Origin: an uncultured Planctomycetota bacterium
Lineage (GTDB): Bacteria > Planctomycetota > SKW154 > DAOVDS01
Assembly: GCA_964641955.1 (NCBI GenBank)
Contig: CAZXNM010000005.1
Span: 164,066-228,065 of the forward strand
DNA: 64,000 nucleotides
Reading direction: 5' to 3'
The position numbers were made by a program, and so were the translations under genes. Below the pieces are notes generated by a model, which ran no database searches, was not told the DNA's origin, and saw only the letters and a program-made list of their open reading frames with translations. Positions within the stretch are counted from its first letter, which is position 1. Each line of letters starts with the position of its first letter. Below are positions 22,257 to 49,367 of the stretch, one piece after another.

Positions 22257-24197
22257 CTAACGCTTCTGCTCCACCAGTTTCGAAACGGAGGGAAAGAGGT
22301 CGATATCCGTGTGCGGCAGGAAGGTCGCCTTCACGAACTCGTCCATGAACTTAACGTCGCCCATGAGGTCGAAATAGGTCATCTTGCCCGCAATCTCGTG
22401 GGCTCTCTCGTAAGCCTCGCGGGAGAGCAGGGCGATTTTCGCGCCCTCGACCGAAGTGTTGCCGGCGAAGGTGACCTTCGACGGTTTCACGTCCGGCAGC
22501 ATGCCTATGGTGATTGCGCTCTCGATGTTCAGGTAGTTGCCGAAACCTCCGGCGAGGTATATCCTCGAGATGTCGTCAACCGAAAGCTGCAGCGATTCGA
22601 GCAGTATCGTGACTGCGGCGTAGACGGCGGCCTTGGAGCGCATCAGGTTCTCTATGTCTATCTCGCTTATGGTTATGTCTCTTCCGATGGCCGATTCCGC
22701 CTTGGGAACTATGACGAACTCCCCGATGCCGTCCCTTTCGCGCAGCCTGTTGCTCTTGACTTCGCGGTTGAACTTGCCCGACCTGTCCAGGATTCCGGCT
22801 GTGAACAGCCGGGCCATGATGTCGAGAAGACCCGAGCCGCATATGCTCCTTGCCGGGCGGTTTCCGACGGTGAAGTACTTGAAGGAGAAACCTTCCTTCG
22901 TGCCCGGCGCTGGCTTCGCCTCGAAGCTCTCGATTGCGCCCCACATGGCGCGGCTGCCGTGCTCGACGCCCGAGCCCTCGAACGCGGGTCCCGCCGAACA
23001 GGAACAGCACAGCAGAGACTCGCTGTCGCCGAGTACGACTTCCCCGTTGGTGCCTATGTCAACGAAGAGGCAGGTGTCTTCCTTGGTGTCGAGCTGCAGG
23101 CTCATCACTCCCGCGGTTATGTCCGCCCCCACGTAAGCGGCCACGCCGGGCAGAACGTAGAGGCGCGCCTTCGGGCTGACCCTGATACCGACCTCGTCGG
23201 CGGACAGCGGCGGTATTATGTTCGAGCTGGGGACGTACGGGTCCCTTCGCAGCCTCGTGGGGTCGAGGCCGAGAAGGAAATGGACCATGGCCGTGTTCCC
23301 CGCCACCACCACGCTCGCTATCTCGTGCAGGTCAACTCCGCTTCGCGAAACGAGCTTGGCCGCGAGGCTGTTGATATCGCTGAGAATCAGATTTCTCATG
23401 TCGTCGAAGGCGTCGTGCTCCTCGCCGTATATTATCCTGTGTATGTAATCCTCGCCGTAGCGCATCTGCGAGTTGTAGGTCGCTTCGACATCGACGGTGA
23501 CGAACTTGCTCAGGTCCACGAGATGTACGACTACCGTCGTCGTGCCCACGTCGATGGCGAGCCCGAAATTCCTGCGCGCAGTGTCGCCGCGCTCGAGCTG
23601 CATAATCTCGTCGCTGCACCGGTTGAATGCTATCGTGGCCGTGACCTGCCAGTCGGAGCGCCTGAGCACGCGCGGGACGCTTCGCAGCAGGTCGAGGTCG
23701 CTGTGCAACTGCAGCGAAGGCCTGTCGAGCAGCGCACGTATCTCGAACCCGAGCCTCTCCGTGTCGGCGATATTCGATGCCGTGTCAGGGGGCTGCATGG
23801 TCATGTAGAGCTTGGTCACCAGCGGCGAGAGTTCGTACCCCGGCACATCGCTCGCATCCTGCGACTTTATCTTGCTCTTTCCGACCAGAATCCTGTCCGA
23901 TTCGGTCACCCTTGTGGGGACAAAGACCTCGACATCGCTGGCAATTTCCGCCCGGCAGGCGAGGACTGCACCTTTTTCCTCGCCTCCGGCGAGCGTGGGC
24001 CCATCCTTGAGGCTTACCTCGCCGCTTCTAACGTAGACCTTGCATTTCCCGCAGACGCCCTCGCCGCCGCACACGCTGTTGATGTAGACATCCGCCGTGT
24101 GCGCCGCTTCGAGCACTGTGGTGCCTTCGGGCACGGTGACAGTGACGTCATCGGGCAGAAAATGGACGCTGAAAGTCTTCTTGCGCTTCTTGACCAA
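22257..24197 (-). CDS. reductive activator of corrinoid protein (RACo): 2Fe-2S ferredoxin + ASKHA ATPase (DUF4445)
   Basis: N-terminal plant-type ferredoxin Cys cluster (C..GxC..C...C), then a ~500-aa ASKHA-like domain. Typical position in acs operons. Confidence 0.75.
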   Translation of the reverse strand: MVKKRKKTFSVHFLPDDVTVTVPEGTTVLEAAHTADVYINSVCGGEGVCGKCKVYVRSGEVSLKDGPTLAGGEEKGAVLACRAEIASDVEVFVPTRVTESDRILVGKSKIKSQDASDVPGYELSPLVTKLYMTMQPPDTASNIADTERLGFEIRALLDRPSLQLHSDLDLLRSVPRVLRRSDWQVTATIAFNRCSDEIMQLERGDTARRNFGLAIDVGTTTVVVHLVDLSKFVTVDVEATYNSQMRYGEDYIHRIIYGEEHDAFDDMRNLILSDINSLAAKLVSRSGVDLHEIASVVVAGNTAMVHFLLGLDPTRLRRDPYVPSSNIIPPLSADEVGIRVSPKARLYVLPGVAAYVGADITAGVMSLQLDTKEDTCLFVDIGTNGEVVLGDSESLLCCSCSAGPAFEGSGVEHGSRAMWGAIESFEAKPAPGTKEGFSFKYFTVGNRPARSICGSGLLDIMARLFTAGILDRSGKFNREVKSNRLRERDGIGEFVIVPKAESAIGRDITISEIDIENLMRSKAAVYAAVTILLESLQLSVDDISRIYLAGGFGNYLNIESAITIGMLPDVKPSKVTFAGNTSVEGAKIALLSREAYERAHEIAGKMTYFDLMGDVKFMDEFVKATFLPHTDIDLFPSVSKLVEQKR

Positions 24198-24218
24198 CGT
24201 GTCTCTCTCGGGATTGTA

Positions 24219-25562
24219 CTACTTCCACATTTCCTTCAGAAATTTGGGAATATAGGATGCCTCCTTGGGGCCGACGAGTATCTCCCAGCCGGTCTCCTCC
24301 TCGAGCTTCCCGCTCATCACCGCGACGAGTCCCGGTATGATGAGCTTTTTGTGTTTGACGACGTTCTCGAGGCCCGTAGCGGCTATGGCCTTTGCCACGG
24401 TCTTTTCGTTGAGCTTGTCCCCGGAGTACGCCGTCAGCACGGAAAGCCCCTCGGTATCGACCGCGAGGATGTAGGCGGGCACGCGGCTTGCCTCCACTTC
24501 GCCCTCGACCGAGAAATACGTGAGCGAGAAGTTCGTGGTGAACAGCACGGGCGAGTTTTCGTCCGGTTCGCCCACCTTGTAGAGCTTCTCGTCAACCTGT
24601 ATGGGTTTCTGCGGATTGGTGTATATATTCTGCTGCATGGTGAGCAGAGGCAGCGCTTCCTCCGGCGCCGCGACATCGAGCACGATAATGCCCGCGTACT
24701 TGCCGACGTAGATGCTCGCTTGGGCCACCTGCTCGAGGTCGTCATCCGCGCCCGCCCCGGCATCGACGATGGTCGGGAAGCCGAGCGACCTGAACGTCTT
24801 CTTTATCGCCAGGCGGCGCAGCTTGGTCAGGGAATGGATGTTTTCCTTCACGCCTGCGCCGGGGGGAACAATCATAATCTCCTCGACGCCGAGTTCCTTG
24901 AGCTTGGGCGTGAGTTCGGCAATTTCCTCCAGCGAGGCGCCCTTGACCGCCAGCGGCAGCTTCTCCTTGCCGCAGAAAGCACCGAGCTTCTCGAAGCTGT
25001 CCTTGTCGGCAGCGTAGAGCAGCGGGCGGCTGTCCTTTATCGCCCCGGCGGCGGCGATAAGGTTGTCCGCGTTGTCGCTCATCAGGATGACGTTCTTGAT
25101 CGGCCCTGCCGCGGCCTTCTGGGCCGCCGCGGTGAACTTGCCGGCGTCCCCGCTGACGTTTGTGACCGCGACGCCGTTGACGAATATCTCCATGCCGACC
25201 CGCGTCCAGCGAAGCTTGCCAATGCCTTCGAGGCGCGCGCCCAGAGCGCCGTCGTCGAGGTCGTCGCCGGCTTTAATCGCGACGCCGCAGGGGTTCATGA
25301 ACCTGTCCTCGTGGCGGAACATGACCGTCTCTTCGCCGACCTTGATAGCGCCGTCGCCGGTGCCGACGGTCACCAGCTTTATGGGAGGAGCCGCAGCGCC
25401 TTCGAGCGCCTGCTTGGCTTCCTCGCTCACATCGGGACACTTGGAGAGTTCGACCTTCTTTTGCGCAAGCTGCATTGCGAACGCAAGGCATGTGGGAAAG
25501 CCGCACTTCTTGCAGTTCGTCTTAGGGAGCAGCTTGTATATCTCGATACCTGTCAGTGCCAT
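24219..25562 (-). CDS. acsC: corrinoid iron-sulfur protein large (gamma) subunit
   Basis: N-terminal 4Fe-4S motif CKKCGFPTCLAFAMQLA...KC, then a TIM-barrel plus Rossmann B12-binding region. Confidence 0.85.
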   Translation of the reverse strand: MALTGIEIYKLLPKTNCKKCGFPTCLAFAMQLAQKKVELSKCPDVSEEAKQALEGAAAPPIKLVTVGTGDGAIKVGEETVMFRHEDRFMNPCGVAIKAGDDLDDGALGARLEGIGKLRWTRVGMEIFVNGVAVTNVSGDAGKFTAAAQKAAAGPIKNVILMSDNADNLIAAAGAIKDSRPLLYAADKDSFEKLGAFCGKEKLPLAVKGASLEEIAELTPKLKELGVEEIMIVPPGAGVKENIHSLTKLRRLAIKKTFRSLGFPTIVDAGAGADDDLEQVAQASIYVGKYAGIIVLDVAAPEEALPLLTMQQNIYTNPQKPIQVDEKLYKVGEPDENSPVLFTTNFSLTYFSVEGEVEASRVPAYILAVDTEGLSVLTAYSGDKLNEKTVAKAIAATGLENVVKHKKLIIPGLVAVMSGKLEEETGWEILVGPKEASYIPKFLKEMWK

Positions 25563-25590
25563 CTTCTTCTCCCTATAGCAACAGGAATTT

Positions 25591-27795
25591 TTACAGCATG
25601 GGGTCCATGGACAATGCGGGATGGTCCACCTTCTGCATGAATTCCATCACCGCCTCTTCTGTAGTACCGACTTCCTCGTCGGCTATCTTGTCTACGAAAT
25701 CCGGAATTCCGGCCTCGTCGCATCGTTTCTGCAGCAGGTCCCTTATCTCTTCCTTCATCTTCTTGGGCATCCAGACGATTCGCTTGAAGCCGCCATCGGC
25801 GCTCATGTACTTGGGGCTGGCGACATAGCGTTTCGAGTGGCCCATGAAGCCCGGTGTCTGCAGGCCGCCGCCGACGGTTCCGGCCATGGTCGAGAACTTC
25901 ATGCCCGAGGGCGTCTCGCCCGGATAGTCCCGGTCAACAATCATGATGCCGTTGGTCATGGGCAGAATCGCACATATCGACTCGAAGCAGCCGCAGGAGG
26001 TCATGGGGTCTATCATCATGGAGTATGCGCTCATGCGCTCAATGGACTTGTTGGACTTCTCGTAGACGAACAGGTTGACGCCATCCCACTGGCCGAGCGT
26101 CCCGTCGAGCGTCTTGCCCTTCTTGATGGGCTGGTTGGGGCCGGAAGGCGTAATCTCGTAGGCGGCACGGCCATCCAGCCAGTTGTAAGCCCCGCAGAGC
26201 CCGGGATGCTGCGGCGTAATGACGCAGACATGATTGGGCGCGAACGACTGACACAGGCTGCAGGAGTAGTAAACGTCCACCGATTCGTCGGTCATGCCTT
26301 CGACGCGCTCGTCGCGAGTCTTGAACACGTCGCGTGCCTGGGACACGAACTCCTGAACTTTCTCCTGGTCGGTGTAAATCCGCACCTGGACCTTGTCCAC
26401 GATGCTGGTGAAGTCTGAGTGTATCTTGGCGTGCAGGATGTCGCCGAGATGGTGCAGCCTGATGCCTGCGTTGAACGCCTCCTTCGAGATGCGCATCCAG
26501 ACTATGTCGCGCTGTCCCATGTGGAAGAGGCCCTGTGCCTGGTTTATGAAATCGTGTATGCGCCTTTCGAGGATAGGCTCGAAGTCCTCCTGCATCTTGC
26601 GGCCGGCGACTTCGACGATGGTCCCTATCTGGTACGTCGCGCCGACGTCCATGGCATCGAGGTCGGGGCCGAATATCTCGACCTTGCCGTCCTCGACCTC
26701 GTTCATATCCTTGACCCGCAGCAGCTCGAACCCGGTGGACTTGGGGCCGCCGAGTTCGACGTGCATGTCTTCGCGCTTGATTCGCTCGCCCTCGAACGCG
26801 GGACTGTAAGACACGGGCACGGGCACTTCCGTAATCTGGACCTTCAGGCCCCGGACCTCGATGGCCTTGTCCACGATTTCGTCGGCGGGCACGGGCGATA
26901 CGACGTGTTCGTATGTGGTCAGACCCGTGACCAGAATCTGCTCGATGTCCTCCTCCGCGAGGGCGGGGAACCCGTAGTTGATGGCGCCCGCGGCCTGCGC
27001 GTGCATCTCGTCGGTCACCGGGCCGAACGCCAGCGCGAACGCGAAAATGCGCAGGCGGTTGTACCTGAGCATCTTCTTGTAGTCGCCCGCCTCGACGCCG
27101 CCGAAGGAGAAGGCCGCGCGGCTGGCAAATCCCAGCGCGTGAATGGTTGCTGTCACGTCGTCGCCGAACGGCACGAGGCGCGTGTTCCAGCCGAGCTGCA
27201 CGCCTTCCTCGCGGAGCTGCTGGGCGAACGACTTGCCGTCGGTCGCGCAGGACATGAACGTGTAAAGGTTCTTCTCCTGGAGCTGTCGGGCTATCTTGAC
27301 CGCCGTTTTGTTGTCCTTGCAGTAGCCGAGAATGGCGGCGAAGCCCGGCGCAGAACCGTCAACGAACTCGATGCCGCGCTCGCGCATTATCTTGTCGTCC
27401 GCAGCACCCAGCCAGAGATGGTCCTCGTCCGGATCCTCGGCGACGAAGTACGGGACAGGATCCTGCGTGTATTTGACAGCCTCGATAATCTCGTCGGCGA
27501 ACAGCGTCGCCACGCCCGCGTCGAGCGTATGGCCGAGATACGGCAGCCACACCTTCTCGTCCGGCACCGGGTGCAGCAGAGACTTGGCTTTCTCGAGCAG
27601 GGACTGCATCTCGCCCAGCGTCGTAATCTTCGTTCCCAGAAAGCCGTAGCTTATTGGAAGAAAATATCCCGTGTTGGGGAATTCAACCTTGGTGTCGGGG
27701 CCTTTTTCCTCGAGGGCGGCTTTGAGTTCGCTTTCAGCGCGCTCGACGAGCTTGTGCGCGCCCCGGATAGCCCGCGTTGCAATCAACTTCGACAT
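25591..27795 (-). CDS. acsB: acetyl-CoA synthase (A-cluster subunit)
   Basis: 734 aa. The A-cluster motif ...TSCGCFE... (Cys-Gly-Cys bridging Ni) is present. RBS AGGAGGT. Confidence 0.9.
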   Translation of the reverse strand: MSKLIATRAIRGAHKLVERAESELKAALEEKGPDTKVEFPNTGYFLPISYGFLGTKITTLGEMQSLLEKAKSLLHPVPDEKVWLPYLGHTLDAGVATLFADEIIEAVKYTQDPVPYFVAEDPDEDHLWLGAADDKIMRERGIEFVDGSAPGFAAILGYCKDNKTAVKIARQLQEKNLYTFMSCATDGKSFAQQLREEGVQLGWNTRLVPFGDDVTATIHALGFASRAAFSFGGVEAGDYKKMLRYNRLRIFAFALAFGPVTDEMHAQAAGAINYGFPALAEEDIEQILVTGLTTYEHVVSPVPADEIVDKAIEVRGLKVQITEVPVPVSYSPAFEGERIKREDMHVELGGPKSTGFELLRVKDMNEVEDGKVEIFGPDLDAMDVGATYQIGTIVEVAGRKMQEDFEPILERRIHDFINQAQGLFHMGQRDIVWMRISKEAFNAGIRLHHLGDILHAKIHSDFTSIVDKVQVRIYTDQEKVQEFVSQARDVFKTRDERVEGMTDESVDVYYSCSLCQSFAPNHVCVITPQHPGLCGAYNWLDGRAAYEITPSGPNQPIKKGKTLDGTLGQWDGVNLFVYEKSNKSIERMSAYSMMIDPMTSCGCFESICAILPMTNGIMIVDRDYPGETPSGMKFSTMAGTVGGGLQTPGFMGHSKRYVASPKYMSADGGFKRIVWMPKKMKEEIRDLLQKRCDEAGIPDFVDKIADEEVGTTEEAVMEFMQKVDHPALSMDPML

Positions 27796-27832
27796 ATTCT
27801 AACCTCCTGCGTGGAGTTCCGTTTCGCTTCGG

Positions 27833-29767
27833 TCATACCTCGAGTTCGCGCCTCATCTCCATGTCGTAGAGCACGCGTTCGCGCGCCTTGTCGATTCCGA
27901 GGGCGGCTCGCTTCTTGTCGATGTGCGCAATCATTTTCTGCGCCATTTCCTTGGCGTTCTCTGCGACGTCCCACATTCCGCCAAGCTCGCCCTCCAGACC
28001 CTTGAACAGGTAGTCCTGGAACTCGGGCGCGCCGCTTACCGGCAGGCCGATGCCGAAGACGGTGTAAACGCCGCTTGCGACGAAGTAGTGCCCGATGGAG
28101 ATGGCCTTCTCGCTCATCCACTCGGGAGCGGCGCCGGCGAGCGGCAGGTCGGAGATGTCTTCGCCGAGGCCGCCCTGTTCGACGACGCCCGCGGCCGCAA
28201 TCAGCAGGCGCGAGTTATCCACGCACGAGCCGCAGTGCAGGACCGGCGGGATGCCGACCGCGCGGCAGACTTCGGCGAGGCCGGGACCGGCGTATTCCTC
28301 GGCGGCTTCGGGGGTCATGAGGCCCGCCATAGCCGCCGCGATGGCCGAACAGCCGGTCTGCAGGACGAGAACGTCGTTCTTTATCAGCTCCTTGCAGACC
28401 TCGACGTGGAACTCGTTGTGCAGGGTCTTGGGGTTGCAGCAGCCGACGACGCCGGCTACCCCGCGAATCCTGCCGTTTATGATGTTTTCGTTCAGCGGCC
28501 TGTATCCGGTTCGGAAGCTGCCACCGAGCATATATATAACCGACTCGTGGGTGAAGCCGGCTACCATGTCCATCTTTTCCTTGGGGATTCTGACGCTGTC
28601 TTTCTTGCGATTCGGGAAGTTCTCGACAGCGGCCTTGACAATTGCCTTGGCCGACTCTATCGGGTTCTCTTCATTGAATTCGATATGGGTTGCGCCCGGG
28701 ATGTGTCCCTTGGGGCTGGTGGTTATGAGCTTGGTGTGGAAGCACTGCACCGTCTTCTGCAGCCCCTGCATGATGCACTGAACATCGACAATCATGGCCT
28801 CGACCGCGCCCGTGCCGATTGCAAGTTCCTGCTGCAGGAAGTTGCCGGCGATGGGAATGCCGTGGCGCATGAGTATTTCATTTGCGGTGCAGCAAATACC
28901 GCCGAGCGTGATGCCTTTGGCACCCTTTGACTCGGCGAGCTTGAGCATCTCGGGGTCCTGCGCGGCGACGACAATCATTTCCGAGAGGGCGGGCTCGTGG
29001 CCGTGAACGATGATGTTCACGGTGTCTTCCTTCAGGATGCCCAGGTTCACCATGCTGCGAAGCGGCTCGGGTGTGTTGAACAGTACGTCCTGGAGCTCGG
29101 TCGCAATCATGGAGCCGCCCCAGCCGTCGCCGATGGCGCAGCGGGTTCCCTGAACCATGAGGCTGTGGTAGTCCTGGTCAACTCCCATGTGGGTGCGGTG
29201 CATGATTTCTACTATTTCACGGTCAACCGCCCGCGGCTCAACGCCCAGTTCCTTCCATAGCTTTTGCCTCTTCTCGGGCGCGCGCTGGAGGAATTTCTGC
29301 GTCCCGTGCGGCTTGCCGAACTCGGCCAGGCAAATCTCGCCTATTTCAATTGCAATGTCCTTGATTGACTTGCCTTCGACCTCCACTCCCAGATAGCCGG
29401 CAATATCCATGAGTTTCTGCTTGTCTTTGAGTTCATAGCCGGGAATATTGCCTTTTGCCGTCTCTAGGAACACGTGCGCGACGTCCCGGCCGTGGTCCGA
29501 GTGCGCAGCGGCGCCGCCGGCAATCATGCGTACGAAATTCCTTGCCGCTATGGTGTTCGCATCAGCGCCGCATACGCCCCGGTCGGCCTTCTTCGTGATG
29601 CGGCACGGTCCCATGTAGCAAATGCGGCAGCAGATGCCCTGTTCACCGAACTTGCAGTGGGGCTTCTGCTTCGCATCCCTGTCCCAGCAGGTTTCAATGC
29701 CGCATTCGCTCATCGAGCAAATCATCTCGTGACTTGCGGCATCATAAGACTTCCGCTCCTCCGCCAT
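27833..29767 (-). CDS. acsA: Ni-dependent anaerobic carbon monoxide dehydrogenase catalytic subunit
   Basis: 644 aa with N-terminal B/D-cluster cysteines (C..C....C...C / CCRICYMGPC) and C-cluster ligands. It sits between acsB and cooC. Confidence 0.9.
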   Translation of the reverse strand: MAEERKSYDAASHEMICSMSECGIETCWDRDAKQKPHCKFGEQGICCRICYMGPCRITKKADRGVCGADANTIAARNFVRMIAGGAAAHSDHGRDVAHVFLETAKGNIPGYELKDKQKLMDIAGYLGVEVEGKSIKDIAIEIGEICLAEFGKPHGTQKFLQRAPEKRQKLWKELGVEPRAVDREIVEIMHRTHMGVDQDYHSLMVQGTRCAIGDGWGGSMIATELQDVLFNTPEPLRSMVNLGILKEDTVNIIVHGHEPALSEMIVVAAQDPEMLKLAESKGAKGITLGGICCTANEILMRHGIPIAGNFLQQELAIGTGAVEAMIVDVQCIMQGLQKTVQCFHTKLITTSPKGHIPGATHIEFNEENPIESAKAIVKAAVENFPNRKKDSVRIPKEKMDMVAGFTHESVIYMLGGSFRTGYRPLNENIINGRIRGVAGVVGCCNPKTLHNEFHVEVCKELIKNDVLVLQTGCSAIAAAMAGLMTPEAAEEYAGPGLAEVCRAVGIPPVLHCGSCVDNSRLLIAAAGVVEQGGLGEDISDLPLAGAAPEWMSEKAISIGHYFVASGVYTVFGIGLPVSGAPEFQDYLFKGLEGELGGMWDVAENAKEMAQKMIAHIDKKRAALGIDKARERVLYDMEMRRELEV

Positions 29768-35738: not shown

Positions 35739-35967
35739 CTTGGCTCCTCGACGCTTTCAGGAATCGTTTCCGACAGGATAGCTTAGCGAACCGCATCGGG
35801 CTATGCAAACTGTTTGGCGCATTTCGCCGGGCATTTGCATTTCCGGGACCGGATTGCGCGCAAAAATTTGTACAGGATGCAGGCTTGAGGCACAGCAGAA
35901 GCGCAGCCGGAAAAGCAGTGAATGGCAAGTTGAAAGTAGAACAGGGGAGCATCGGGCTGGAACTTGG

Positions 35968-35993
35968 ATGATGATATGGCGCCATATCATCAT
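35968..35993. repeat. 26-bp perfect palindrome ATGATGATATGGCGCCATATCATCAT
   Basis: Its reverse complement is identical. It lies in the intergenic region between the ABC ATPase start and the beta-helix gene. Confidence 0.9.
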
Positions 35994-36006
35994 ATAGCTG
36001 CAGTGG

Positions 36007-36177
36007 CTCCGCGCGGTATACTGCGCCCATCCCGCCTTTGCCCAGCCTTCCAATGATGCGGTAGCCCTTGATGGAAACGTCGCCCACCAGAGCCGCTTCG
36101 TCGCCGGGTTTGTCGAGCGGGACGAAGGTTGCCTGCACATCCTCGAGAATCATGGTGCAGGCCCGGCAGAGTGACAT
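36007..36177 (-). pseudogene. remnant of a Ser/Thr protein kinase N-terminus (Hanks subdomain I only)
   Basis: Minus-strand frame MSLCRACTMILEDVQ...IKGYRIIGRLGKGGMGAVYRAE carries a typical kinase glycine loop, but there is no VAIK/catalytic region. The frame runs into the 26-bp palindrome, and less than 270 nt remain before the next gene. Confidence 0.35.
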
Positions 36178-36305
36178 ATCAGCTTGCGCGCAGGACTTCA
36201 TTTTTGGGAGAAAACCACCTCTGCAGGTTGACTCGTGCAACATTGCCTCGTATACTTGAGCAGTGCACATGCCATGACCTTCTCAGGTGTTCGGGAGGAA
36301 ACAGC

Positions 36306-39300
36306 ATGTCTTCAAGCGATAAACTCTTCTTCGTTCTTCTTCTCACACTTGTAATTTCTGTCTGCCACGGCTGCGGCAATATCGATGGGCCGCAGTTTCC
36401 CTGGGTTGCGTCACCGCTTGTGACAGTATCTACGCCATCCAGTCCTGCAAGCGGCGATATACCGATTATCTACAAGCTTATCGACCGGGAGCTTGAACAG
36501 GGCACAATTACCCTCGAATACTCCACGGACGGCGGACAGACATACAACACAGCGACCCTCACCGTCCCCGGCGAAGCGACCAACCTCGCTTCCGGATGGC
36601 ATCCCGGAAAAACTCATGCCGTCCAGTGGGACTCGGTAACGGACATGGTGGGCCGCTCCGGCGCCGTGGAGGTGAAGGTGCGAATCACGCCTTCCGACGC
36701 ATCGAACCCTTCAGGTACAGCCGGTGTATCGGATACGTTTACGGTAGATAACACTGCATACAACGAAGCTCCGACCGCAACGACGGCAGCACCGGCCGGC
36801 GTGCAGTCGGGAAACGTGCAGATAAACTACTTTCTCTCCGACGTTGAAAGCGACACATGCTCCATAGAAGTGCTCTATTCCGTAAATAACGGGACAACCT
36901 GGCAGTCAGCGACAATGGGTACTGCGGGCGACGGGCTGACAGGACTCTCTTCCTCACCTGCCGGAACTGCGCATGTCTATTTCTGGGACTCTCGTGCAGA
37001 CAACGTGGCTCTCTCCGGGCAGGTTGACACGGTGAAAATCAGGGTAATTCCAACCGATTTCAATACAGGCACTGCCGGAGACACCAACTCCTTCAGCGTG
37101 GACAACTCGGTTGCGAATAACCCGCCTACTGTGACAATCGAGACAGGTCCCGCCGATAGCTCGACAGTTACGACTACGCAGGTGACGTTCACCTGGAGCG
37201 GTTCTGATACCGATGGAAGCGTTATCGGTTATTATTACTCGTTCGACCACGACCCGCCGGATATGTGGACGACGAACACGACAGCCACCTCGTTGCCTCT
37301 GACAGAAGGCCTCCACATCTTCCGGGTAGTCGCCATGGATAACGACAGCGATTTGTCAACAGTCGCCTCGCGGACGTTTACGGTTTCAATACCGGGTACG
37401 ATAACAGCGGATTTCATCGGCACGCCGCTTACGGGCGAAGCGCCGCTCACGGTGGATTTTACCGACCTCTCGACAGCGACGAACGGGATTGACACGTGGT
37501 CGTGGGACTTCGGGAACGGCGACACGAGCACCGAGCAGCACCCGTCCTGCATTTACGACGATGCCGGAAGCTACACGGTGTCGCTCACCGTCACCGGCCC
37601 CGACGGGGAGGACACGGAGACAAAGACAACTTACATAACGGTGGTAGGCGAGCACACTGAGGGAACGATTTACGTGGATGACTCCGGAGGTCTTGACAGC
37701 AACAACGGCCTGAGCTGGGTCACGGCTGTGAAGACGATACAGACCGGCCTCGACAAGGCTTCCGACAACTGGACAGTCTTTGTCGCAAACGGGACATACA
37801 CCGGCACAACCAACAAGAACCTGGATTTTGCAGGTAAGGCGATACATCTTAAATCTGTCGGCGGCGCGTCCAACTGTGTCATAGACTGCGAGAACGACGG
37901 TCGGGGTTTCTACTTCCACAGTGGTGAAACAAACGCCGCTATCGTCGAAGGTCTGACTGTCAAGAATGGGGGACTTGTTGATGGTTACGGAGCCGGTATT
38001 CTGTGCAAAGACTCGAGTTCGCCAATAATACGTGACTGCGCAATAGAAAATTGTCACGCAGTTTCCATGTCCTGGGTAATTGAGGGAGGCGGCATTTCCT
38101 GCATGTATGATTCGAGCCCATCCCTAATCAGGTGTACCATTGCGGGCAACTCCGCTGGTCATTGGGGTGGCGGTCTTTGTTGTTTAGACAATTGCAGTCC
38201 AGCCGTAACTGATTGCACCATAGCCGGTAACTCAGCGCAGTGGGGCGGCGGTATTAGCTGTGATAACCAGTCTAATCCGGTGATAAGTGACTGCACGGTA
38301 GAAGACAATTCGGCAGATGACTGGGGTGGTGGGATTCTGTGCCGACGAACCAGCGAGCTTTCAATAGCCAACTGCACGATAAGAAACAACTGGGCCGGCA
38401 ATTATGGAGGTGGAATTTTTGCTGACTACTTCAATGCTACAATCCTTTGCTGCATCATAACTGGAAACAGGGCTGATTCCATGGGCGGAGGCATATACTG
38501 CGACGCATCGGATTTCGCATTGGTAAATTGTGTAATAGCGGGTAATTCCTCGGTGGATGGAGGTTGCATTCACTTCGAAAACAGCGACAACCCAACGATC
38601 ACCAATTGCACGTTAGCAGGCAACACGGCGGACTGGTATGGTGGCGGTATCAGCGCCTATAACTCTTATCCGATCCTGGGCAACTGCATCCTGTGGGCTA
38701 ATACGGCCACTAATGATGGTAATGAAATCTTCACGCTTGCAAGTGGCATGACCATCACATTGAACTATTGTGACTACGCTGACAACACTTTGAATTCACA
38801 CAATATTTCTGGTTTCGGTGATGTTCTTGAACAGGGCATTTGCATTCACTTAGACCCGCAGTTTTTGAACGCAGCCGCGCAGGATTATCACCTTCAAGCG
38901 GGTTCACCATGCATCGATGCCGGCGACAACTCCCTGGTACCGTCGGGCGTTACGACCGACTTCGACGGCTGCGCGCGGATATTCAACGACATTGTTGACA
39001 TAGGCCCGCTTGAGTACGGCTCGTCCCATCCCTATGACCTGATTGAGCTTATCAACATAGACCGCGCCGTGGCTGGCGCGCCGCCGCTTGCGTGGAACGA
39101 AGCCTGGTCCACCGCATGTACAGGCCATTCGGAGCAGGTTTACATCGGCGAGCGCAATGGTACAATCGTACAGGTGGACCCCGCCCTCGTTACCTGGTAC
39201 AACAGCGACGACTCGCAGAAGCGCCAGCTCATGGACTTCGATGGCAGCCCCGCGACCGGGTATTTCATCAGTGCCACGGCGATGGCCTTCGGCACGCATG

Positions 39301-39434
39301 TTGACTCCCTCGCCGATTTCCATGACGCGCTGATGGCAAACTTCAGCGAATACCTTCTCGACCCGGCGGTAACGGACTTTGGCTGCGGAAGCTGCGGAGA
39401 TGTCTGGGAAGCAATGTGGACCTACAACCCGTAA
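36306..39434 (+). CDS. secreted multidomain protein: Asp-box/Ig-like repeats + PKD domain + right-handed parallel beta-helix (PbH1) repeats + C-terminal domain
   Basis: Start at ATG 36306 with GGGAGGAA RBS (the ORF-track TTG extension is rejected). Signal peptide. SxDxGxTW-like motifs. PKD motif ...WDFGNGDTSTEQHP..Y...G.YTVSLTV. Many C.I.GNSA..GGGI beta-helix repeats. Confidence 0.7.
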   Translation: MSSSDKLFFVLLLTLVISVCHGCGNIDGPQFPWVASPLVTVSTPSSPASGDIPIIYKLIDRELEQGTITLEYSTDGGQTYNTATLTVPGEATNLASGWHPGKTHAVQWDSVTDMVGRSGAVEVKVRITPSDASNPSGTAGVSDTFTVDNTAYNEAPTATTAAPAGVQSGNVQINYFLSDVESDTCSIEVLYSVNNGTTWQSATMGTAGDGLTGLSSSPAGTAHVYFWDSRADNVALSGQVDTVKIRVIPTDFNTGTAGDTNSFSVDNSVANNPPTVTIETGPADSSTVTTTQVTFTWSGSDTDGSVIGYYYSFDHDPPDMWTTNTTATSLPLTEGLHIFRVVAMDNDSDLSTVASRTFTVSIPGTITADFIGTPLTGEAPLTVDFTDLSTATNGIDTWSWDFGNGDTSTEQHPSCIYDDAGSYTVSLTVTGPDGEDTETKTTYITVVGEHTEGTIYVDDSGGLDSNNGLSWVTAVKTIQTGLDKASDNWTVFVANGTYTGTTNKNLDFAGKAIHLKSVGGASNCVIDCENDGRGFYFHSGETNAAIVEGLTVKNGGLVDGYGAGILCKDSSSPIIRDCAIENCHAVSMSWVIEGGGISCMYDSSPSLIRCTIAGNSAGHWGGGLCCLDNCSPAVTDCTIAGNSAQWGGGISCDNQSNPVISDCTVEDNSADDWGGGILCRRTSELSIANCTIRNNWAGNYGGGIFADYFNATILCCIITGNRADSMGGGIYCDASDFALVNCVIAGNSSVDGGCIHFENSDNPTITNCTLAGNTADWYGGGISAYNSYPILGNCILWANTATNDGNEIFTLASGMTITLNYCDYADNTLNSHNISGFGDVLEQGICIHLDPQFLNAAAQDYHLQAGSPCIDAGDNSLVPSGVTTDFDGCARIFNDIVDIGPLEYGSSHPYDLIELINIDRAVAGAPPLAWNEAWSTACTGHSEQVYIGERNGTIVQVDPALVTWYNSDDSQKRQLMDFDGSPATGYFISATAMAFGTHVDSLADFHDALMANFSEYLLDPAVTDFGCGSCGDVWEAMWTYNP

Positions 39435-39763: not shown

Positions 39764-39833
39764 TTTTGCTTCGGGCAAAATGGTAGAGCAGGGGGGGCTG
39801 TTGTTTTGTCTCCTGCTCTACTGTTCTGAATAT

Positions 39834-39906
39834 GGGGCCGTAGCTCAGTTGGGAGAGCGCCGCGTTCGCACTGCGGAGGTAGTGGGTTCGAACCCCATCG
39901 GCTCCA
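39834..39906 (+). tRNA. tRNA-Ala (anticodon CGC), G3:U70 identity pair present
   Basis: Acceptor GGGGCCG/CGGCTCC with a G3-U70 wobble, D arm GCTC-AGTTGGGA-GAGC, anticodon loop TTCGCAC, T arm GTGGG-TTCGAAC-CCCAT. 73 nt, no encoded CCA. Confidence 0.85.
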
Positions 39907-39932
39907 TTTTTTCTCGCCACGGCGAGAAAAAA
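39907..39932. terminator. bidirectional intrinsic terminator
   Basis: TTTTTT-CTCGCC-ac-GGCGAG-AAAAAA, a perfect hairpin flanked by T and A runs directly after tRNA-Ala. Confidence 0.8.
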
Positions 39933-40091
39933 TAGAAAGGAGAAAGGAGTAAGTAGAAAGTAGTAAGTAGAAAGTAGAGCAAACCGCGGCTAACGCCGCG
40001 TCCGAGGAAAGAACCTCCACATACCTGAATAGCTTTTCTCCTTGGTCTACTTACTACTCACTACTTTCTGATAAACAAAGCGGAACATGCT

Positions 40092-40454
40092 ATGGCCTTT
40101 GCCTTCGAGAAGCTTCTCGTCTATCAGAAGGCCGTCGATTTTGCCGACACCATATCAAAGCTCACCGAGCAATTTCCGAGAGGATATTCTTATCTCGCTA
40201 ACCAGTTAAACAGAGCCTCCTTGTCTATCGCCGCCAACATTGCCGAAGGCAACGGCCGCTTCACGAAGGCAGACCGGAGGAACTTCTTCTTCATCGCGCG
40301 AGGGTCTGTTCAGGAGTGCATCCCGCTGCTGGAGCTTGCTAAAAGACGCCACCTTGTTAGCGGTAGCGTGCAGCAGCAACTCAAGTCTCGACTCGAAGAA
40401 ATAGCCAAAATGCTGTCCGGATTGATAAAAGGCATCGACAAGCGTAAGATATGA
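40092..40454 (+). CDS. four-helix-bundle protein (23S rRNA intervening-sequence protein / bAvd-like family)
   Basis: LVYQKAVDFADTISKLTEQFP..Y.LANQLNRASLSIAANIAEGNGRFTKADRRNFFFIARGSVQE matches the conserved core of the IVS-protein/Avd family. 120 aa. Confidence 0.75.
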   Translation: MAFAFEKLLVYQKAVDFADTISKLTEQFPRGYSYLANQLNRASLSIAANIAEGNGRFTKADRRNFFFIARGSVQECIPLLELAKRRHLVSGSVQQQLKSRLEEIAKMLSGLIKGIDKRKI

Positions 40455-44521: not shown

Positions 44522-44731
44522 TCAGTCCACGGCGATTATAACGTTGGAAGCCTTGATAATCGCGTTGGCTTCCGTTCCGACCTTCAGTCCGAGCCTTTCG
44601 ACCGAGTTCTTGGTGATAATAGAGACTATCTCGATGCCGTTGGGCAGCTCTATCACGACCTCGGCGTTCACGGCGCCGATATCGATTTTCTTGACCTTGC
44701 CCTTAATCATGTTCCTGGCGCTTACCTTCAC
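44522..44731 (-). CDS. molybdopterin/tungstate-binding Mop (TOBE, molbindin) single-domain protein
   Basis: 69 aa; N-terminal MKVSARNMIKGKVKKI... is typical of Mop/TOBE proteins. Confidence 0.7.
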   Translation of the reverse strand: MKVSARNMIKGKVKKIDIGAVNAEVVIELPNGIEIVSIITKNSVERLGLKVGTEANAIIKASNVIIAVD

Positions 44732-44780
44732 TGCAAACCTCCATAAATTGTCGAAACCGGGCGCAAAGCCCGGGTCTTCG

Positions 44781-45650
44781 CTACTTGCCCGGCACGGCGT
44801 CGGGGTAGAAGAGCACCTCGCCGTCCTTCTTGAAGTCGCCGATGAGCTTCTGGCCCGCTTTCGAGGTGAGCCACTCGATGAACTTCATCGCCTCGTCGTA
44901 CTTGACGTGCGCGTGCTTCTTCGGGTTGACCGCGATGACGCCGTACGGGTTGAAGAGCCGCTCGTCGCCCTCGACCAGTACGGGCAGGTCTATCTTGCCC
45001 CTGAAGGCTATGTAGGTGCCCCTGTCGGTAATGGTGTAGGCCCGCTTCTCGTTGGCGATGTTCAGGACCGCGCCCATGCCCTGGCCGGCGCTCATGTACC
45101 ATTCGCCCGAGGGCTCGACGCCCGCGGCCTGCCACAGCGTCTGCTCCTTCTTGTGCGTGCCGGAGTCATCGCCGCGGGATACGAATGAGCCGCCGCTCTC
45201 GGAGAGTTTCTTGAGCGCTTCCGCGGCGTCCGACATGCCCTTGATGCCGGCCGGGTCCTCTTCGGGCCCGATGATTACGAAGTCGTTGTGCATGACATCG
45301 CGCCTGTTCACGCCGAACCCGTCGGCGACGAACTTGTCCTCGGCCGCGCGCGCGTGTACGAGGATTACATCGACATCGCCGTTCTCGCCGAGCTTTATCG
45401 CCGCGCCCGTTCCGACCGCGATGACCTTGACCTCTATGTCCTCTTCCTCCTTGAACGCGGGCAGCAGCGCGGCAAGCAGCCCCGAGTTGTCCGTGCTCGT
45501 CGTTGTGGCCAGCTTGATACTTTCGGCCTGTTTCTCGGGCTCGCCTCCGGCCGGCTTTGCAACCGGCTTCGACGAGTCGGAACATGCCCCGGCAAGGACT
45601 ACGAGAACGAAAACCGTGACGAGACCGATTAACATTTTCTTCTTCTGCAT
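44781..45650 (-). CDS. tupA: tungstate/molybdate ABC transporter substrate-binding lipoprotein (TupA/WtpA-like)
   Basis: Lipobox LAGAC. Motifs LATTTSTDNSGLL, ...ILVHARAAEDKFV..., FVSRGDDSGTHKKE are characteristic of TupA-type oxyanion binding proteins. Confidence 0.75.
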   Translation of the reverse strand: MQKKKMLIGLVTVFVLVVLAGACSDSSKPVAKPAGGEPEKQAESIKLATTTSTDNSGLLAALLPAFKEEEDIEVKVIAVGTGAAIKLGENGDVDVILVHARAAEDKFVADGFGVNRRDVMHNDFVIIGPEEDPAGIKGMSDAAEALKKLSESGGSFVSRGDDSGTHKKEQTLWQAAGVEPSGEWYMSAGQGMGAVLNIANEKRAYTITDRGTYIAFRGKIDLPVLVEGDERLFNPYGVIAVNPKKHAHVKYDEAMKFIEWLTSKAGQKLIGDFKKDGEVLFYPDAVPGK

Positions 45651-45803
45651 GATTCGCTCCCTCCCGAATTAACGACCGGCTGTATTGTTTATATCGTTTC
45701 CGATATAAAATCAACCGAAAAGATGAAATTCACGCCGATACAGAATACGACTGCTGCACAGGCGTGAGAATTGTGAGTAGACAGTAGAATGTGGAGCACA
45801 CAG

Positions 45804-45855
45804 CCGGAACGTGTATATGCGAATATGTTAACATATTCGCATATACACGTTCCGG
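45804..45855. repeat. 52-bp perfect palindrome centred on GTTAAC, nested inside longer imperfect inverted repeats (45775-45952)
   Basis: CCGGAACGTGTATATGCGAATATGTTAACATATTCGCATATACACGTTCCGG is identical to its reverse complement. It is flanked by GTGGAGC/GCTCCAC, and further out by GTAGACAGTAG (45777-45787) / TACTGTCTAC (45933-45942). Confidence 0.9.
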
Positions 45856-46329
45856 CTCCACTTCGTCATTACGAGCAGGGCGAAGCCCGGCCATGCCCAT
45901 TGGCTATTGGCTTCTTGGCCTCTGGCCCTGTGTACTGTCTACCGTCTACTGTATAGGAGTTTTGGGTACACGATCCGGAGTTCAGTGGAGTTCCGGTCAT
46001 GTCCCCAAAACTCGGGAGGCGTCGGGACATGATCAACTTGTCGCCTGTCGTATGTTTCGCCAAACTGCCTGGCGTTTGGCTTCGCCAAGCCGCCAGTGGG
46101 CGAGAACATACTTTCGGCGATCTGGCGCTTAGGTTTTTATCGCCTTACGTAATTCTGCTGCGCAGAATGACTCCCGGCGATGTGGCGCTGAACTTGTACT
46201 GCGCAACGGAACTGCGCCAGAGTCGTGTCCCAGAGACGCCGGCTGCGCCAGGGAAATCAGACCGCCACGCGGCGATGCCCGCCGCTTGCGGCGCCGGTAA
46301 TCAAGCCTCGTCAAGTAGTTGAGAATAAA

Positions 46330-46358
46330 GTTGACCCCGGCGGTAGGTATTCGTATAC
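46330..46358 (+). promoter_or_regulatory. candidate sigma70 promoter (TTGACC-N17-TATACT)
   Basis: Located 45 nt upstream of ATG 46404, which carries RBS AAGGGAGGAG. Confidence 0.5.
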
Positions 46359-46403
46359 TGCAGCTTCTTTGCGGGCTTCGGATATTTAAAGGGAGGAGAA
46401 CTT

Positions 46404-49367
46404 ATGTATCGTATCGGGACCTTATTTGTGGCATTTGTCCTTGCCGCCCTCGTCATGTCGAGCGCGGGCTGCAAGAAGGAAGGCGACACTATAATAGCGG
46501 GCGGGAACAAGCCACCGGAAGTGGAGACCATTCCCGACCAGACAGCGACTGTCAACGTGCCTTTTGCGCTCGACCTGTCGCTCTACGTCAGCGACAGGCG
46601 CGACGACATCACGAGCCTGAACTTCTACATCCTCTCGGGTGAAGGGTCATTCACAGGCTCGATGTACAACAACACGTTCAGCTCTACCGGCCTCAAGACG
46701 GTCACGTTCGTCGTACTGGACAGCGAGAGCGCCGGGACGCGCGCATCCTTCAGCGTGAATGTCATCGCGCCGCCGCTTGCCGACTTCGTGGCTGATGTGA
46801 CGTACGGGGTCGCACCGCTCGACGTTGCCTTCACAGACCTCTCGACCGGTGATTTCAACGCGTGGTCGTGGGACTTCGGCGACGGCGGCACGAACACGGA
46901 GCAAAACCCGGCTTACCAGTACACCGTTGCGGGCCTCTACGACGTGACCCTGACGATAACGGGCCCTGGCGGGACGGACGCGCTTACGAAGCATTCGTAC
47001 ATTCAGGTGCTCGACCCGGCGGCAGGGATATGGTACGTCGATTCGGCCAACACGGCCGCGACGGTCCATGACGGCCTCGCCTGGGACACGGCTTTCCTCG
47101 AAATCCAGAGTGGAATCGATGCCGCCACGGACGGAGACATGGTCCTCGTGGCGGATGGCGATTACGCCGGCACGAGCAACGTTGACCTCGACTTTGGCGG
47201 CAGGCTGATAGTCCTCAAGGCGTGGGACTATTACGGAAGCGGCGTCTGCACGATAGACTGCGAGGACGCCGCGCGCGCCTTCTACTTCCACTCGGGTGAG
47301 ACGAACGAGGCGGTCGTAGACGGTTTCACTATTGCAAGCGGCTATACGATCGCCACCGGCGGGGCTTTCTGCCTGGATGCGTCGAGCCCCACTATCAGCC
47401 GATGCACCATCACATCCTGCCTCGCGGACGGGGGCGGCGGCGCCATAGCCTTTGTCTCAGCCGCGCCCGTAATTACAGGCTGCACGGTATCGGACAACGA
47501 ATCGCCGGCTGGCGCAGGCATTTTTGCGATAACGACTTCTGCGACGACGATTATCTCCGACGGCACATTCTCAGGGAACTACGCGAGCAGCGTCGGCGGA
47601 GCTATCTTCGGAGTAACGGTCGTTCTGGATATCGACCACTGCACGTTTACAGAGAACTTGACGACAGGCGACGGGGGGTGTCTCTTCGCCGCGACGTCGA
47701 GCGATGTGAGCGTGGTGAACTGCACCATGAGCCGCAACCAGGCGAACACCTACGGGGCCGGTTTCTACGTCAATGACGACTCCGTTATAACCGTAACCGG
47801 CAGCACCTTCACAGGCAATAAGTGTGGCATGGGTGCAGGCATCGCCGGTGTCCTGTCCAGCGTGAGCGCGTCAAATTGCACCATGTCGGGAAACAACTGC
47901 ATGGTATTCGGCCCGGGAATCTGCGCGATGGGAGACACCAGCACGCCCCATGGATACAGCCTGAATGTGGCAAATTGCACGTTTTCAGACAACTCGGCCA
48001 TGTACGGCGCCATTACTTCCATGGGGACGGACACCACGATAAACAACTGCCTTTTCCTCGACAACGAGGGCATGGTTAGCGCATCGCTCATGTTCCAGGG
48101 CAGCGATACGGACCCGGCGTATTTTACGACCCTCGTCACGAACTGCACCATGACGGGCAACAGTGCCATGATGGGTGGCGCCGTCTGCGGAATGTATACG
48201 ACCGCGACAATACAGGACTGCACCATATCCAATAACTATGCCGGACAGGCAGCAGGCGGCATGATACTGGGCGGAGATTCGGGGTATTCCATGGTGACGA
48301 TAAAGGACTGCACCTTCATGAACAATCGCAGCGGCATGATAGCCGGCGCCCTGGAGCTTCAGGATGGCTGCGACCCCGCGACCATTACCGGATGCACGTT
48401 CTCCGGCAACTCGACGACCAACAGTGGCGGAGCCGTTGATGTGGGGGGCACGGGCAGCGGCGCTATGACCCAGACGATATCTTTCACTAACTGCGAGATA
48501 ACGGACAACAGCGCGACCATAGTAGCCGGAGGCATATACTTAACGGATTACTTCGACGCCACTATTACCGCATGTACGATAACAGGCAACAGCGCAACTC
48601 AGGTAGGTGGAGGTGTATATGCTTACAACGACAGTTCCAGTTACACCTCCACGCTGGGAATAACCGATGCTGTCATCGAGGGCAATACCGGAGGCATAAT
48701 GGGCGGCGGGCTGTACGCTCAAGGCGGCTACATGGCCCTGGGCCCCGTTTCGAACTGCGTGATTTCAGGCAACGAAGCTTTCAGCATTGGTGCCGGCGCC
48801 TACATCGACACCGGTGCCGCCGTCAACCCCACCACGCCCCTGTTTACAAACTGCCTGATTACGGACAACTTCGGCGTCATGAACGGTGGTGGAATAAACC
48901 TCAACGGTCACATGAGCCCCATATTTACCAACTGCACAATTGCGAACAACAAGGCATCCATGGCGGGCGGCGGCTTTGTCTGCAGCTCTTCGAACGTGAC
49001 CGCCACGCTGGAAAACTGCATTATCTGGGGCAACACGGCTACAACCGAAGGCGCCCAGATATACTACGGCGATTCCACACTTTTGCTTGTAAGCTCGGAC
49101 TACTCCAACGCCTCGGGCGATATCGGCGGCACGGGAGGCGCGTTTACGCCGGACGGCGGCTGCAAGACGGTCAACCCGCTGTTCGTGACGGGCCCGAAGG
49201 GCGGCTACTACCTCAGCCAGATTGCGGCTGGCGAGCTGGTTACGAGCGAGTGCGTCAACGCTGGCGCGGGCACGCTGGCGGCAATCGGCATCGACGGCAA
49301 GACGACCAGGAGCGACGGGGTAATCGACACCGACCCGCCCGACATGGGCTATCATTACGACCAGTAG
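46404..49367 (+). CDS. lipoprotein paralog: PKD domain + ~600-aa right-handed parallel beta-helix repeat region
   Basis: Lipobox SSAGC. PKD motif WSWDFGDGGTNTEQNP.Y.Y...G.YDVTLTITG. The CTIDCEDAARAFYFHSGETNEAVVDGFT segment is near-identical in architecture to the 36306 gene. Dozens of C/T-rich NxxGG beta-helix rungs. Confidence 0.7.
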   Translation: MYRIGTLFVAFVLAALVMSSAGCKKEGDTIIAGGNKPPEVETIPDQTATVNVPFALDLSLYVSDRRDDITSLNFYILSGEGSFTGSMYNNTFSSTGLKTVTFVVLDSESAGTRASFSVNVIAPPLADFVADVTYGVAPLDVAFTDLSTGDFNAWSWDFGDGGTNTEQNPAYQYTVAGLYDVTLTITGPGGTDALTKHSYIQVLDPAAGIWYVDSANTAATVHDGLAWDTAFLEIQSGIDAATDGDMVLVADGDYAGTSNVDLDFGGRLIVLKAWDYYGSGVCTIDCEDAARAFYFHSGETNEAVVDGFTIASGYTIATGGAFCLDASSPTISRCTITSCLADGGGGAIAFVSAAPVITGCTVSDNESPAGAGIFAITTSATTIISDGTFSGNYASSVGGAIFGVTVVLDIDHCTFTENLTTGDGGCLFAATSSDVSVVNCTMSRNQANTYGAGFYVNDDSVITVTGSTFTGNKCGMGAGIAGVLSSVSASNCTMSGNNCMVFGPGICAMGDTSTPHGYSLNVANCTFSDNSAMYGAITSMGTDTTINNCLFLDNEGMVSASLMFQGSDTDPAYFTTLVTNCTMTGNSAMMGGAVCGMYTTATIQDCTISNNYAGQAAGGMILGGDSGYSMVTIKDCTFMNNRSGMIAGALELQDGCDPATITGCTFSGNSTTNSGGAVDVGGTGSGAMTQTISFTNCEITDNSATIVAGGIYLTDYFDATITACTITGNSATQVGGGVYAYNDSSSYTSTLGITDAVIEGNTGGIMGGGLYAQGGYMALGPVSNCVISGNEAFSIGAGAYIDTGAAVNPTTPLFTNCLITDNFGVMNGGGINLNGHMSPIFTNCTIANNKASMAGGGFVCSSSNVTATLENCIIWGNTATTEGAQIYYGDSTLLLVSSDYSNASGDIGGTGGAFTPDGGCKTVNPLFVTGPKGGYYLSQIAAGELVTSECVNAGAGTLAAIGIDGKTTRSDGVIDTDPPDMGYHYDQ

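Follow-up and report, generated by a model that had tools for sequence, protein, structure and literature searches.

Among described bacterial repeats, the closest systems include the repetitive extragenic palindromic sequences (REPs), 20–50-nt palindromes standing after GTAG, some of them perfect, which are handled as single-stranded hairpins by REP-associated tyrosine transposases (RAYTs) (PMC8266576). REP families tagged with GTAG or CGTC, whose stems measure 5–13 bp, are known from numerous phyla, Planctomycetes among them (PMC3733652), and REPs, which have neither terminal inverted repeats nor target-site duplications, have been reported in the Planctomycetes-Verrucomicrobia-Chlamydiae (PVC) superphylum (PMC8266576, PMC3733652). 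Here we analyzed a palindrome, termed P1, in a 64,000-nt stretch (the window) of contig CAZXNM010000005.1 from an uncultured Planctomycetota bacterium, where it lies in the 753-nt spacer between a tupA-type binding protein gene (44781–45650, minus strand) and a gene for a 987-aa PKD/beta-helix protein on its right (46404–49367). P1 is real and statistically extraordinary. The explanation that we favour, tentatively and short of an even chance, is that P1 forms the core hairpin of a ~95-nt non-coding extragenic palindromic repeat unit of the type of REPs or the miniature inverted-repeat transposable elements known as MITEs.

Like the REPs, and the bacterial interspersed mosaic elements (BIMEs) and REPINs that are mobilised by RAYT/TnpA-REP enzymes of the HUH class, the unit around P1 is a short intergenic non-coding hairpin with GTAG 5′ of the palindrome. 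However, GTAG is found 0–2 nt from the stem in REP/BIME sequences and 14 nt from P1 at its nearest, and REP/BIME families comprise tens to thousands of copies, whereas only two diverged copies of the unit were seen in the window, with no RAYT gene among its genes. With MITEs such as Correia/NEMIS, ERIC and RUP, the P1 element shares a size of 100–200 nt, a non-coding intergenic nature, a long hairpin and a position beside other inverted-repeat-bounded modules, of which one (module C) is dispersed; it differs from them in lacking a target-site duplication and a matching insertion sequence (IS) in the window, in having an outer inverted repeat in copy 2 only, and in that the core palindrome varies between copies while staying perfect.

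A 56-bp perfect palindrome upstream of tupA

The initial annotation had described a perfect palindrome of 52 bp at 45804–45855 and had considered it very unlikely to arise by chance. The letters were as quoted, with the symmetry gaining 1 bp per side to give 56 bp instead of 52, and the improbability was borne out by a simple calculation (~1e-12 expected per 64 kb). The G+C content of P1 is 43% overall and 25% over its central 32 bp, compared to 58% for the window, and its termini are CCGG-rich (Table 1). A 26-nt arm of P1 was matched at this single locus in the window and in 0 of 100 dinucleotide shuffles, and when the window was scanned together with 434 kb of DNA from related planctomycetes, the runner-up perfect zero-spacer palindromes measured 28 and 26 bp.

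Regarding the reliability of the assembly, the tupA-carrying contig of the public Logan assembly (k = 31, run SRR14802574) terminates with the k-mer 45801–45831, which is the obligatory de Bruijn branch node for a 56-bp palindrome with unlike flanks, indicating that P1 was present in the reads. An assembly or library artefact is suggested by the length of P1, exactly k + 1 for the SPAdes default k of 55 (56 = 55 + 1), and by the breaking up of the Logan assembly across 45832–46212. On the other hand, the Logan contig ends at the very k-mer predicted for a genuine palindrome with the flanks of P1; because the 28-nt arms are shorter than k, only k-mers crossing the centre could be shared and cause the branch, so that the coincidence of 56 with 55 + 1 explains nothing. 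In addition, the flanks of P1 are unique and non-palindromic, and the shorter perfect palindrome in a homologous unit (see below) cannot have originated in that way. We thus regard an artefact as very improbable.

P1 lies between two divergent promoters, upstream of both and inside neither, within a larger nested structure, element A. The pairing of GTGGAGC with GCTCCAC around the palindrome, previously noted together with a bulge on the left arm, was borne out with 4–6 unpaired bases (ACAC/ACACAG), as was the inverted repeat reported further out, in which GTAGACAGTA(G) (45777–45787) pairs with TACTGTCTAC (45933–45942). The outer stem consists of heptads, GTAGACA GTAGAAT GTGGAGC on the left and, as the reverse complement, GTAGACG GTAGACA GTACACA on the right; the heptad pattern was matched 6 times in the window compared to 0.17 expected, all within element A and an element at 39.9 kb. 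Folding of the 191-nt element relative to shuffles gave z = −8.7 on the plus strand and −11.8 on the minus strand, and the whole 753-nt spacer folded with z = −11 and −14.

Searches of Rfam around P1 returned only spurious sub-threshold microRNA hairpin models (23–32 bits against thresholds of 47–135), and over the window, the Moco riboswitch included, tRNAs alone reached the gathering threshold. P1 was rejected as an intrinsic terminator, as there was no terminator-like site and no T run after it. By eye, its resemblance to dif/Xer sites (arm matches 8/11 and 6/11), to parS (half-site order wrong) and to the Fur box was weak. Protelomerase target sites, such as the 56-bp telRL of phage N15, are likewise perfect or near-perfect palindromes of about 50–56 bp; this candidate was also rejected, since P1 is internal with unrelated flanks and has no protelomerase, phage or plasmid context, its neighbours being housekeeping genes (tupA, a TOBE protein, transaldolase, transketolase and the beta-helix protein).

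Table 1. Features of the P1 locus and of the related unit, in window coordinates unless a locus of a relative (L) is named
Feature	Coordinates	Strand	Description
P1, perfect palindrome, 56 bp	45802..45857	n/a	arms 28 nt, spacer 0, centre GTTAAC
Extended stem around P1	45791..45861	n/a	GTGGAGC (45791-45797) / GCTCCAC (45855-45861); DNA fold -33.4 kcal/mol, z = -12
Outer stem, GTAGNNN heptads	45777..45949	n/a	perfect 10-bp core 45777-45786 / 45933-45942
Element A (contains P1)	45776-45955		between divergent promoters
Repeat unit copy 2	45768..45864	+	GAAT, heptads, GGAGCA, 15-nt spacer, perfect palindrome, GGCTCC
Repeat unit copy 1	35920..36012	+	~65% identical to copy 2 (60/92 aligned positions), architecture alike
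Pa, core of copy 1	35968..35993	n/a	perfect 26-bp palindrome ATGATGATATGGCGCCATATCATCAT, 13-bp arms, no loop
Ser/Thr kinase gene 5′ fragment	35994..36153	-	MILEDV..., glycine loop GRLGKGGMGAVYRAE; pairwise E = 2e-7 to kinase in L005
tupA promoter-like hexamers	45688..45714	-	TTGATT (45714-45709), 15-nt spacer, TATAAA (45693-45688); read from sequence
Candidate Mo/W operator of tupA	45690..45707	n/a	18-bp dyad TATATCG-GAAA-CGATATA, type TATRTC-N6-GAYATA
TATRTC-N6-GAYATA sites in relatives	L003 331-348; L004 ~1991-2026; L005 ~4880-4897; L008 ~3882-3899; L125 ~1451-1468		
Beta-helix/PKD promoter-like site	46331..46359	+	TTGACC-17-TATACT
Module B	45957..46013	n/a	imperfect 57-bp palindrome, 75% complementary
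Module C	46016..46242	n/a	~225 nt; bounding inverted repeat GGCGTC(TCT)GGGACAYGAYC

Two diverged units with perfect cores

The repeat reading rests on a second unit ~10 kb away (copy 1), which is colinearly similar to the unit containing P1 (copy 2) over ~95 nt and carries a perfect palindrome of its own, Pa. Both copies show the same order of a GAAT start, AGTAGAA heptads, GGAGCA, GGAAC, the palindrome and GGCTCC, and both fold into a clamp, an internal loop and a perfect hairpin; the unit would accordingly read, 5′ to 3′, GTAG-type heptads, a GGAGC clamp, the perfect palindrome and a GCTCC clamp. AGTAGAA is kept in both copies 14–30 nt from the palindrome, and in copy 2 a GTGG stands at the foot of the extended stem. 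ATATG-N4-CATAT forms the centre of both P1 and Pa, and these are its only exact matches in the window. The alignment of the two copies was strong under three permissive scoring schemes (for instance, a score of 61 compared to 23.7 ± 4.3 for shuffles, reached by 0 of 500) and ranked first of 1572 real 260-nt windows, the next one scoring 47.

The two cores differ in sequence and length, yet each is perfect: the 41 base pairs that make up P1 and Pa are without exception of the Watson-Crick type, with no mismatch and no G-T. Since the flanks of the copies have diverged by ~30–35% while both palindromes are flawless, the identity of the arms appears to be maintained at the DNA level. If ~15% substitutions per lineage are assumed, the calculated probability of leaving 56 positions untouched is ~1e-4, and that for 26 positions is ~0.015. 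The absence of G-U pairs, together with the position of P1 upstream of both promoters, likewise favours an element acting at the DNA level rather than at the RNA level.

Template switching at quasipalindromes is an established mutational mechanism. Homogenisation of the arms could thus proceed by formation of a hairpin or cruciform, in which one arm would serve as the template for the other through intrastrand template switching (quasipalindrome correction); the palindrome could also recently have been re-created as the unit propagated through a single-stranded hairpin intermediate. Alternatively, selection in favour of a flawless hairpin or cruciform may make the arms co-evolve. The effects of P1 are probably structural. 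Its centre is AT-rich (25% G+C) and, with the CCGG and GGAGC clamps, would suit cruciform extrusion, although this is speculation; an extruded cruciform could absorb negative supercoiling between the divergent tupA and beta-helix genes, and P1 would be a hotspot of deletion and rearrangement. A stronger version of this idea takes P1 for a structure-specific DNA element in which identity of the arms is actively maintained although the sequence itself can change. It would then be a site of control or recombination that senses supercoiling or is recognised as a hairpin, of a type undescribed in bacteria and possibly related to the heptad stem-loops discussed below. This version draws on the same perfect pairing and diverged flanks and on the placement of the two cores, at one position of the unit, upstream of beta-helix paralogues and between divergent promoters, and we consider it rather unlikely.

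The surroundings of copy 1 point to a rearrangement. A 5′ fragment of a Ser/Thr kinase gene, undetected by Pfam, abuts Pa, and its similarity to kinases stops at the Pa edge (35968–35993), indicating that copy 1 marks the break-point of a rearrangement and did not at first belong to the promoter region of the beta-helix gene; six-frame translation found no kinase remnant at copy 2. The truncated kinase gene is also compatible with the earlier suggestion of a recombination hotspot. Another suggestion of the initial annotation, a MITE-like element, stood in part: it is supported by the diverged second copy beside a truncated gene and by the copying of the neighbouring module C on another contig, whereas a target-site duplication, identical copies and a transposase in the window were not found.

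Several results weigh against the repeat reading. No transposase (RAYT/IS200) is encoded in the 64-kb window, where just two copies of the unit were seen, diverged and none identical, and the Logan contig runs unbroken through 45768–45801, so that, in that sample, no second site shares an identical 31-mer with the left part of the unit. Under strict scoring the alignment of the copies was marginal (26 compared to 15.9 ± 2.3, reached by 3 of 500 shuffles). The copies have no terminal inverted repeat in common, the 10–11-bp outer inverted repeat of copy 2 having no matching right arm in copy 1, and inspection revealed no direct repeat flanking P1, the 95-nt unit or the 180-nt element that could represent a target-site duplication. 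The 28-bp arms of P1 lie outside the 5–13 bp of REP/BIME stems, whose units measure 20–50 nt; those of Pa are 13 bp. An exact search with a P1 22-mer gave 0 matches in 185,579 species genomes, 241 million metagenome records and IMG/VR, collections outside which the source genome lies and which sample its lineage poorly; blastn of 45760–45960 against plasmids and phages returned nothing relevant, and the two open reading frames (ORFs) crossing P1, its two open frames, had no relatives as proteins. Finally, both copies lie in the same orientation upstream of PKD/beta-helix paralogues, which a regulatory module would explain too.

Regulatory, mutational and RNA-level alternatives

That last point makes it a serious if unlikely rival reading that the sites regulate the two beta-helix paralogues. 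P1 and Pa would then be upstream sites of a dimeric or, for P1, tetrameric transcription factor co-regulating the secreted proteins, with ATATG/CATAT half-sites at identical spacing as the recognition core. The gene downstream of copy 1 (36306–39434) encodes a PKD/beta-helix protein 36% identical to the one right of the spacer (E = 7e-67), and the exclusive occurrence of ATATG-N4-CATAT at these two sites fits a shared binding site. The paralogues also share an extended promoter-like sequence, AGTTGACYC-N14-TCGTATAC(T), at 36229–36257 and 46331–46359, which suggests a common sigma factor or common regulation and, as GTTGACYC-N14-TCGTATAC, shows that cis-regulatory DNA has been conserved; neutral upstream DNA should be below 65% identity when the proteins are at 36%. 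However, a perfect symmetry of 56 bp far exceeds what a footprint needs, the distances to the −35 hexamers are unrelated (~250 and ~500 bp upstream), and the kinase 5′ remnant between copy 1 and the promoter implies that the site was not originally part of the promoter region. The motif is missing upstream of distant beta-helix homologues, which are too distant to decide the matter: the metagenome relatives show 25–55% identity over parts of the protein, too little for an empty-site comparison. P1 might also be a one-off inverted duplication, created by fold-back priming at GTTAAC during break repair or replication, functionless and immobile. It is perfect and spacerless, its centre is a 6-bp palindrome, public data contain no relative, and a palindrome at a rearrangement junction, as in copy 1 beside the truncated kinase, fits break repair. 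Nevertheless, perfect palindromes occupy the same position in both homologous units and share a centre motif, which independent accidents are unlikely to produce, and the older, imperfect outer symmetry (GTGGAGC, heptads) points to a long-standing hairpin instead of a fresh event; we judge such a duplication quite unlikely.

The nested element could also be transcribed and act as RNA, its long double-stranded stem being cleaved by RNase III, governing processing or stability, or forming a small RNA, similarly to the heptad stem-loops that precede four-helix-bundle genes in Planctomycetota. It folds strongly on both strands, its outer arms are GTAGNNN heptads as in the stem-loop at 39933–40072 and in 54–63 of 80 related loci, and it was the fourth-best match of a covariance model (R1) that was built from 39 loci of that family. 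Element A and the family have in common a variable loop containing hairpins, enclosed by GTAGARA-type heptads rich in purines to its left and by heptads rich in pyrimidines to its right. The model, however, scored only 9.0 bits (E = 5) at 45764–45840 compared to 58.2 bits (E = 1e-12) for the true member at 39933–40072; with this insignificant score and without the invariant TAGAGCAGG and CCTGCGGTCT, element A was rejected as a member of the family. Its helices are nested and not ordered a-b-a′-b′, and no tRNA or four-helix-bundle gene adjoins it. The location of P1 upstream of both predicted promoters, the exclusively Watson-Crick pairing, identically symmetric on both strands and thus indicative of a constraint on DNA, and the merely sub-threshold microRNA models in Rfam also argue against an RNA-level role, which we consider improbable.

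The initial annotation had proposed P1 as an operator for a molybdate- or tungstate-responsive regulator of the ModE/TunR type acting on tupA, a role that we now find scarcely credible. P1 does lie in the upstream region of tupA, has dyad symmetry and contains TATAT/ATATA strings, and AT-rich dyad symmetry upstream of a tungstate/molybdate binding-protein gene is what it has in common with ModE Mo-boxes and TunR operators. It is, however, located 90–150 bp upstream of the tupA promoter, starting ~90 bp upstream of the −35-like hexamer (45709–45714), and lacks the motif TATRTC-N6-GAYATA, whereas an 18-bp dyad of this type fills the spacer between the −35-like and −10-like hexamers of tupA at 45690–45707. 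In 6 of 8 upstream regions of relatives whose TupA is 69–81% identical to that of the window (L003/L007, L004 with two copies, L005/L006, L008 and L125), the same motif precedes tupA or a porin-tupA operon. In L003, where the promoter is laid out as in the window (TTGACA-15-TATAAT), the dyad likewise sits between the two hexamers. TATRTC-N6-GAYATA has a single exact match in the 64-kb window, 0.11 being expected with one mismatch allowed. P1, in contrast, was missing upstream of tupA in L003/L007, L004, L005/L006, L008, L125, L126 and L127, and no ModE-like regulator gene was found among the annotated window genes. Compared to the 18-bp dyad, P1 is three times longer, further upstream and unconserved. 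The dyad, on the other hand, is a candidate tungstate/molybdate-responsive operator of the lineage because of its position and conservation, with a layout unlike that of the E. coli Mo-box. The relatives of TupA (≤81% identity) have other upstream neighbours, and there is thus no orthologous empty site with which the P1 locus could be compared.

The surrounding DNA and the heptad stem-loop cassette

The spacer is a stack of inverted-repeat-bounded modules, element A, module B and module C, between the two divergent promoters. A 107-aa ORF across module C retrieved just two proteins in an exhaustive HMMER search: P0121, which is the same ORF, and P0122, a 64-aa protein on another NCBI contig (131,941 bp). 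P0122 and the module C ORF have MINLSP in common and 30 residues at 93% identity, after which 35 residues are skipped and the sequences diverge; the second copy of module C has thus lost 105 nt internally, between two direct repeats that encode LSP. The Logan contig with the beta-helix gene begins at 46213, which is 30 nt (k − 1) inside the repeat ending at 46242. This break and the P0122 copy indicate that module C is a dispersed repeat and that the spacer has been inflated by such DNA. P0121 had been called in public annotation as a 97-aa 'protein' across module C and is probably spurious. We agree with the initial annotation that the spacer has no convincing coding potential, as no ORF matched Pfam and the single relative of the annotated P0121 is a copy of the repeat. 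No mobile-element, phage or regulator genes were present in the annotated parts of the window. Element A also contains GTCATTACGAG, at the site of the motif GTCATTRCGAG (45865–45875), followed by a GGGC-GAA-GCCC mini-hairpin; the motif was not enriched in the window, and a literature search on it was without result. A related inverted pair, GTCATTGCGAGG...CTCGCAATGAC, lies downstream of tupABC in L008 (6648–6742) and is a small palindromic repeat of a type widespread in bacterial intergenic regions.

The true heptad stem-loop in the window (39933–40072) lies 6 kb from element A and belongs to a Planctomycetota cassette (window 39833–40454; loci L011–L090) that consists, 5′ to 3′, of a tRNA or tmRNA gene, a short perfect terminator-like hairpin, the heptad stem-loop and a four-helix-bundle gene. 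The stem-loop comprises, in order, TAGAGCAGG with purine-rich heptads (GGAGARA/GTAGARA, or GGTGAAC variants), a variable loop, and CCTGCGGTCT with pyrimidine-rich heptads; the four-helix-bundle gene is of the 23S-rRNA intervening-sequence (IVS) type (PF05635). The cassette was seen in 54–63 of 80 loci. The 80 loci closest to one window gene were all from Planctomycetota or unclassified bacterial metagenome-assembled genomes except one labelled Verrucomicrobiota, in keeping with the planctomycete origin of the window. In 47 of 60 scanned loci a tRNA gene (mostly for Pro, with three anticodons, and also for Ala, Glu, Gln and Met) or a tmRNA gene was directly upstream. The helix GCAGGNG/CNCCTGC shows compensatory changes, and the arm blocks co-vary between loci; the order a-b-a′-b′ suggests a pseudoknot or two alternative helices. 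That the cassette follows a variety of tRNA genes suggests that it is a module either mobile or linked to tRNA processing. It matched no Rfam family.

Regarding the other genes of the region, the window tupA is followed downstream (44522–45650) by a gene for a 69-aa TOBE (molbindin-like) protein and then by those for transaldolase and transketolase, with no permease or ATPase genes. In L003, which encodes the 81%-identical and nearest TupA, transaldolase likewise comes directly after tupA, while the more distant L005, L008, L126 and L127 have tupA-tupB-tupC, in which the ATPase carries a TOBE domain. In L060 (1195–1218), a perfect 24-bp palindrome, GACGCGTTCCACGTGGAACGCGTC, with the canonical parS-like core GTTCCACGTGGAAC was observed. 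The window also contains a carbon-monoxide dehydrogenase/acetyl-CoA synthase cluster (19936–29767) with CdhD-type subunits, the RACo activator, a prismane/carbon-monoxide dehydrogenase family protein and CooC-like ATPases, and this cluster points to an anaerobic, Wood-Ljungdahl-capable planctomycete.

The practical lesson of this locus is that caution is needed before large palindromes are called operators; with TATRTC-N6-GAYATA, the candidate molybdate/tungstate operator of the lineage is now defined. Of greater interest, perhaps, is the conserved heptad stem-loop and four-helix-bundle cassette after tRNA and tmRNA genes. Should the repeat reading be true, P1 would belong to the REP/MITE world as an unusually long member of perfect symmetry, found in a planctomycete that is apparently anaerobic and poorly sampled, and the homologous units with their different perfect cores would offer a natural test case for template-switch conversion versus selection for arm identity, and for cruciforms between divergent promoters.

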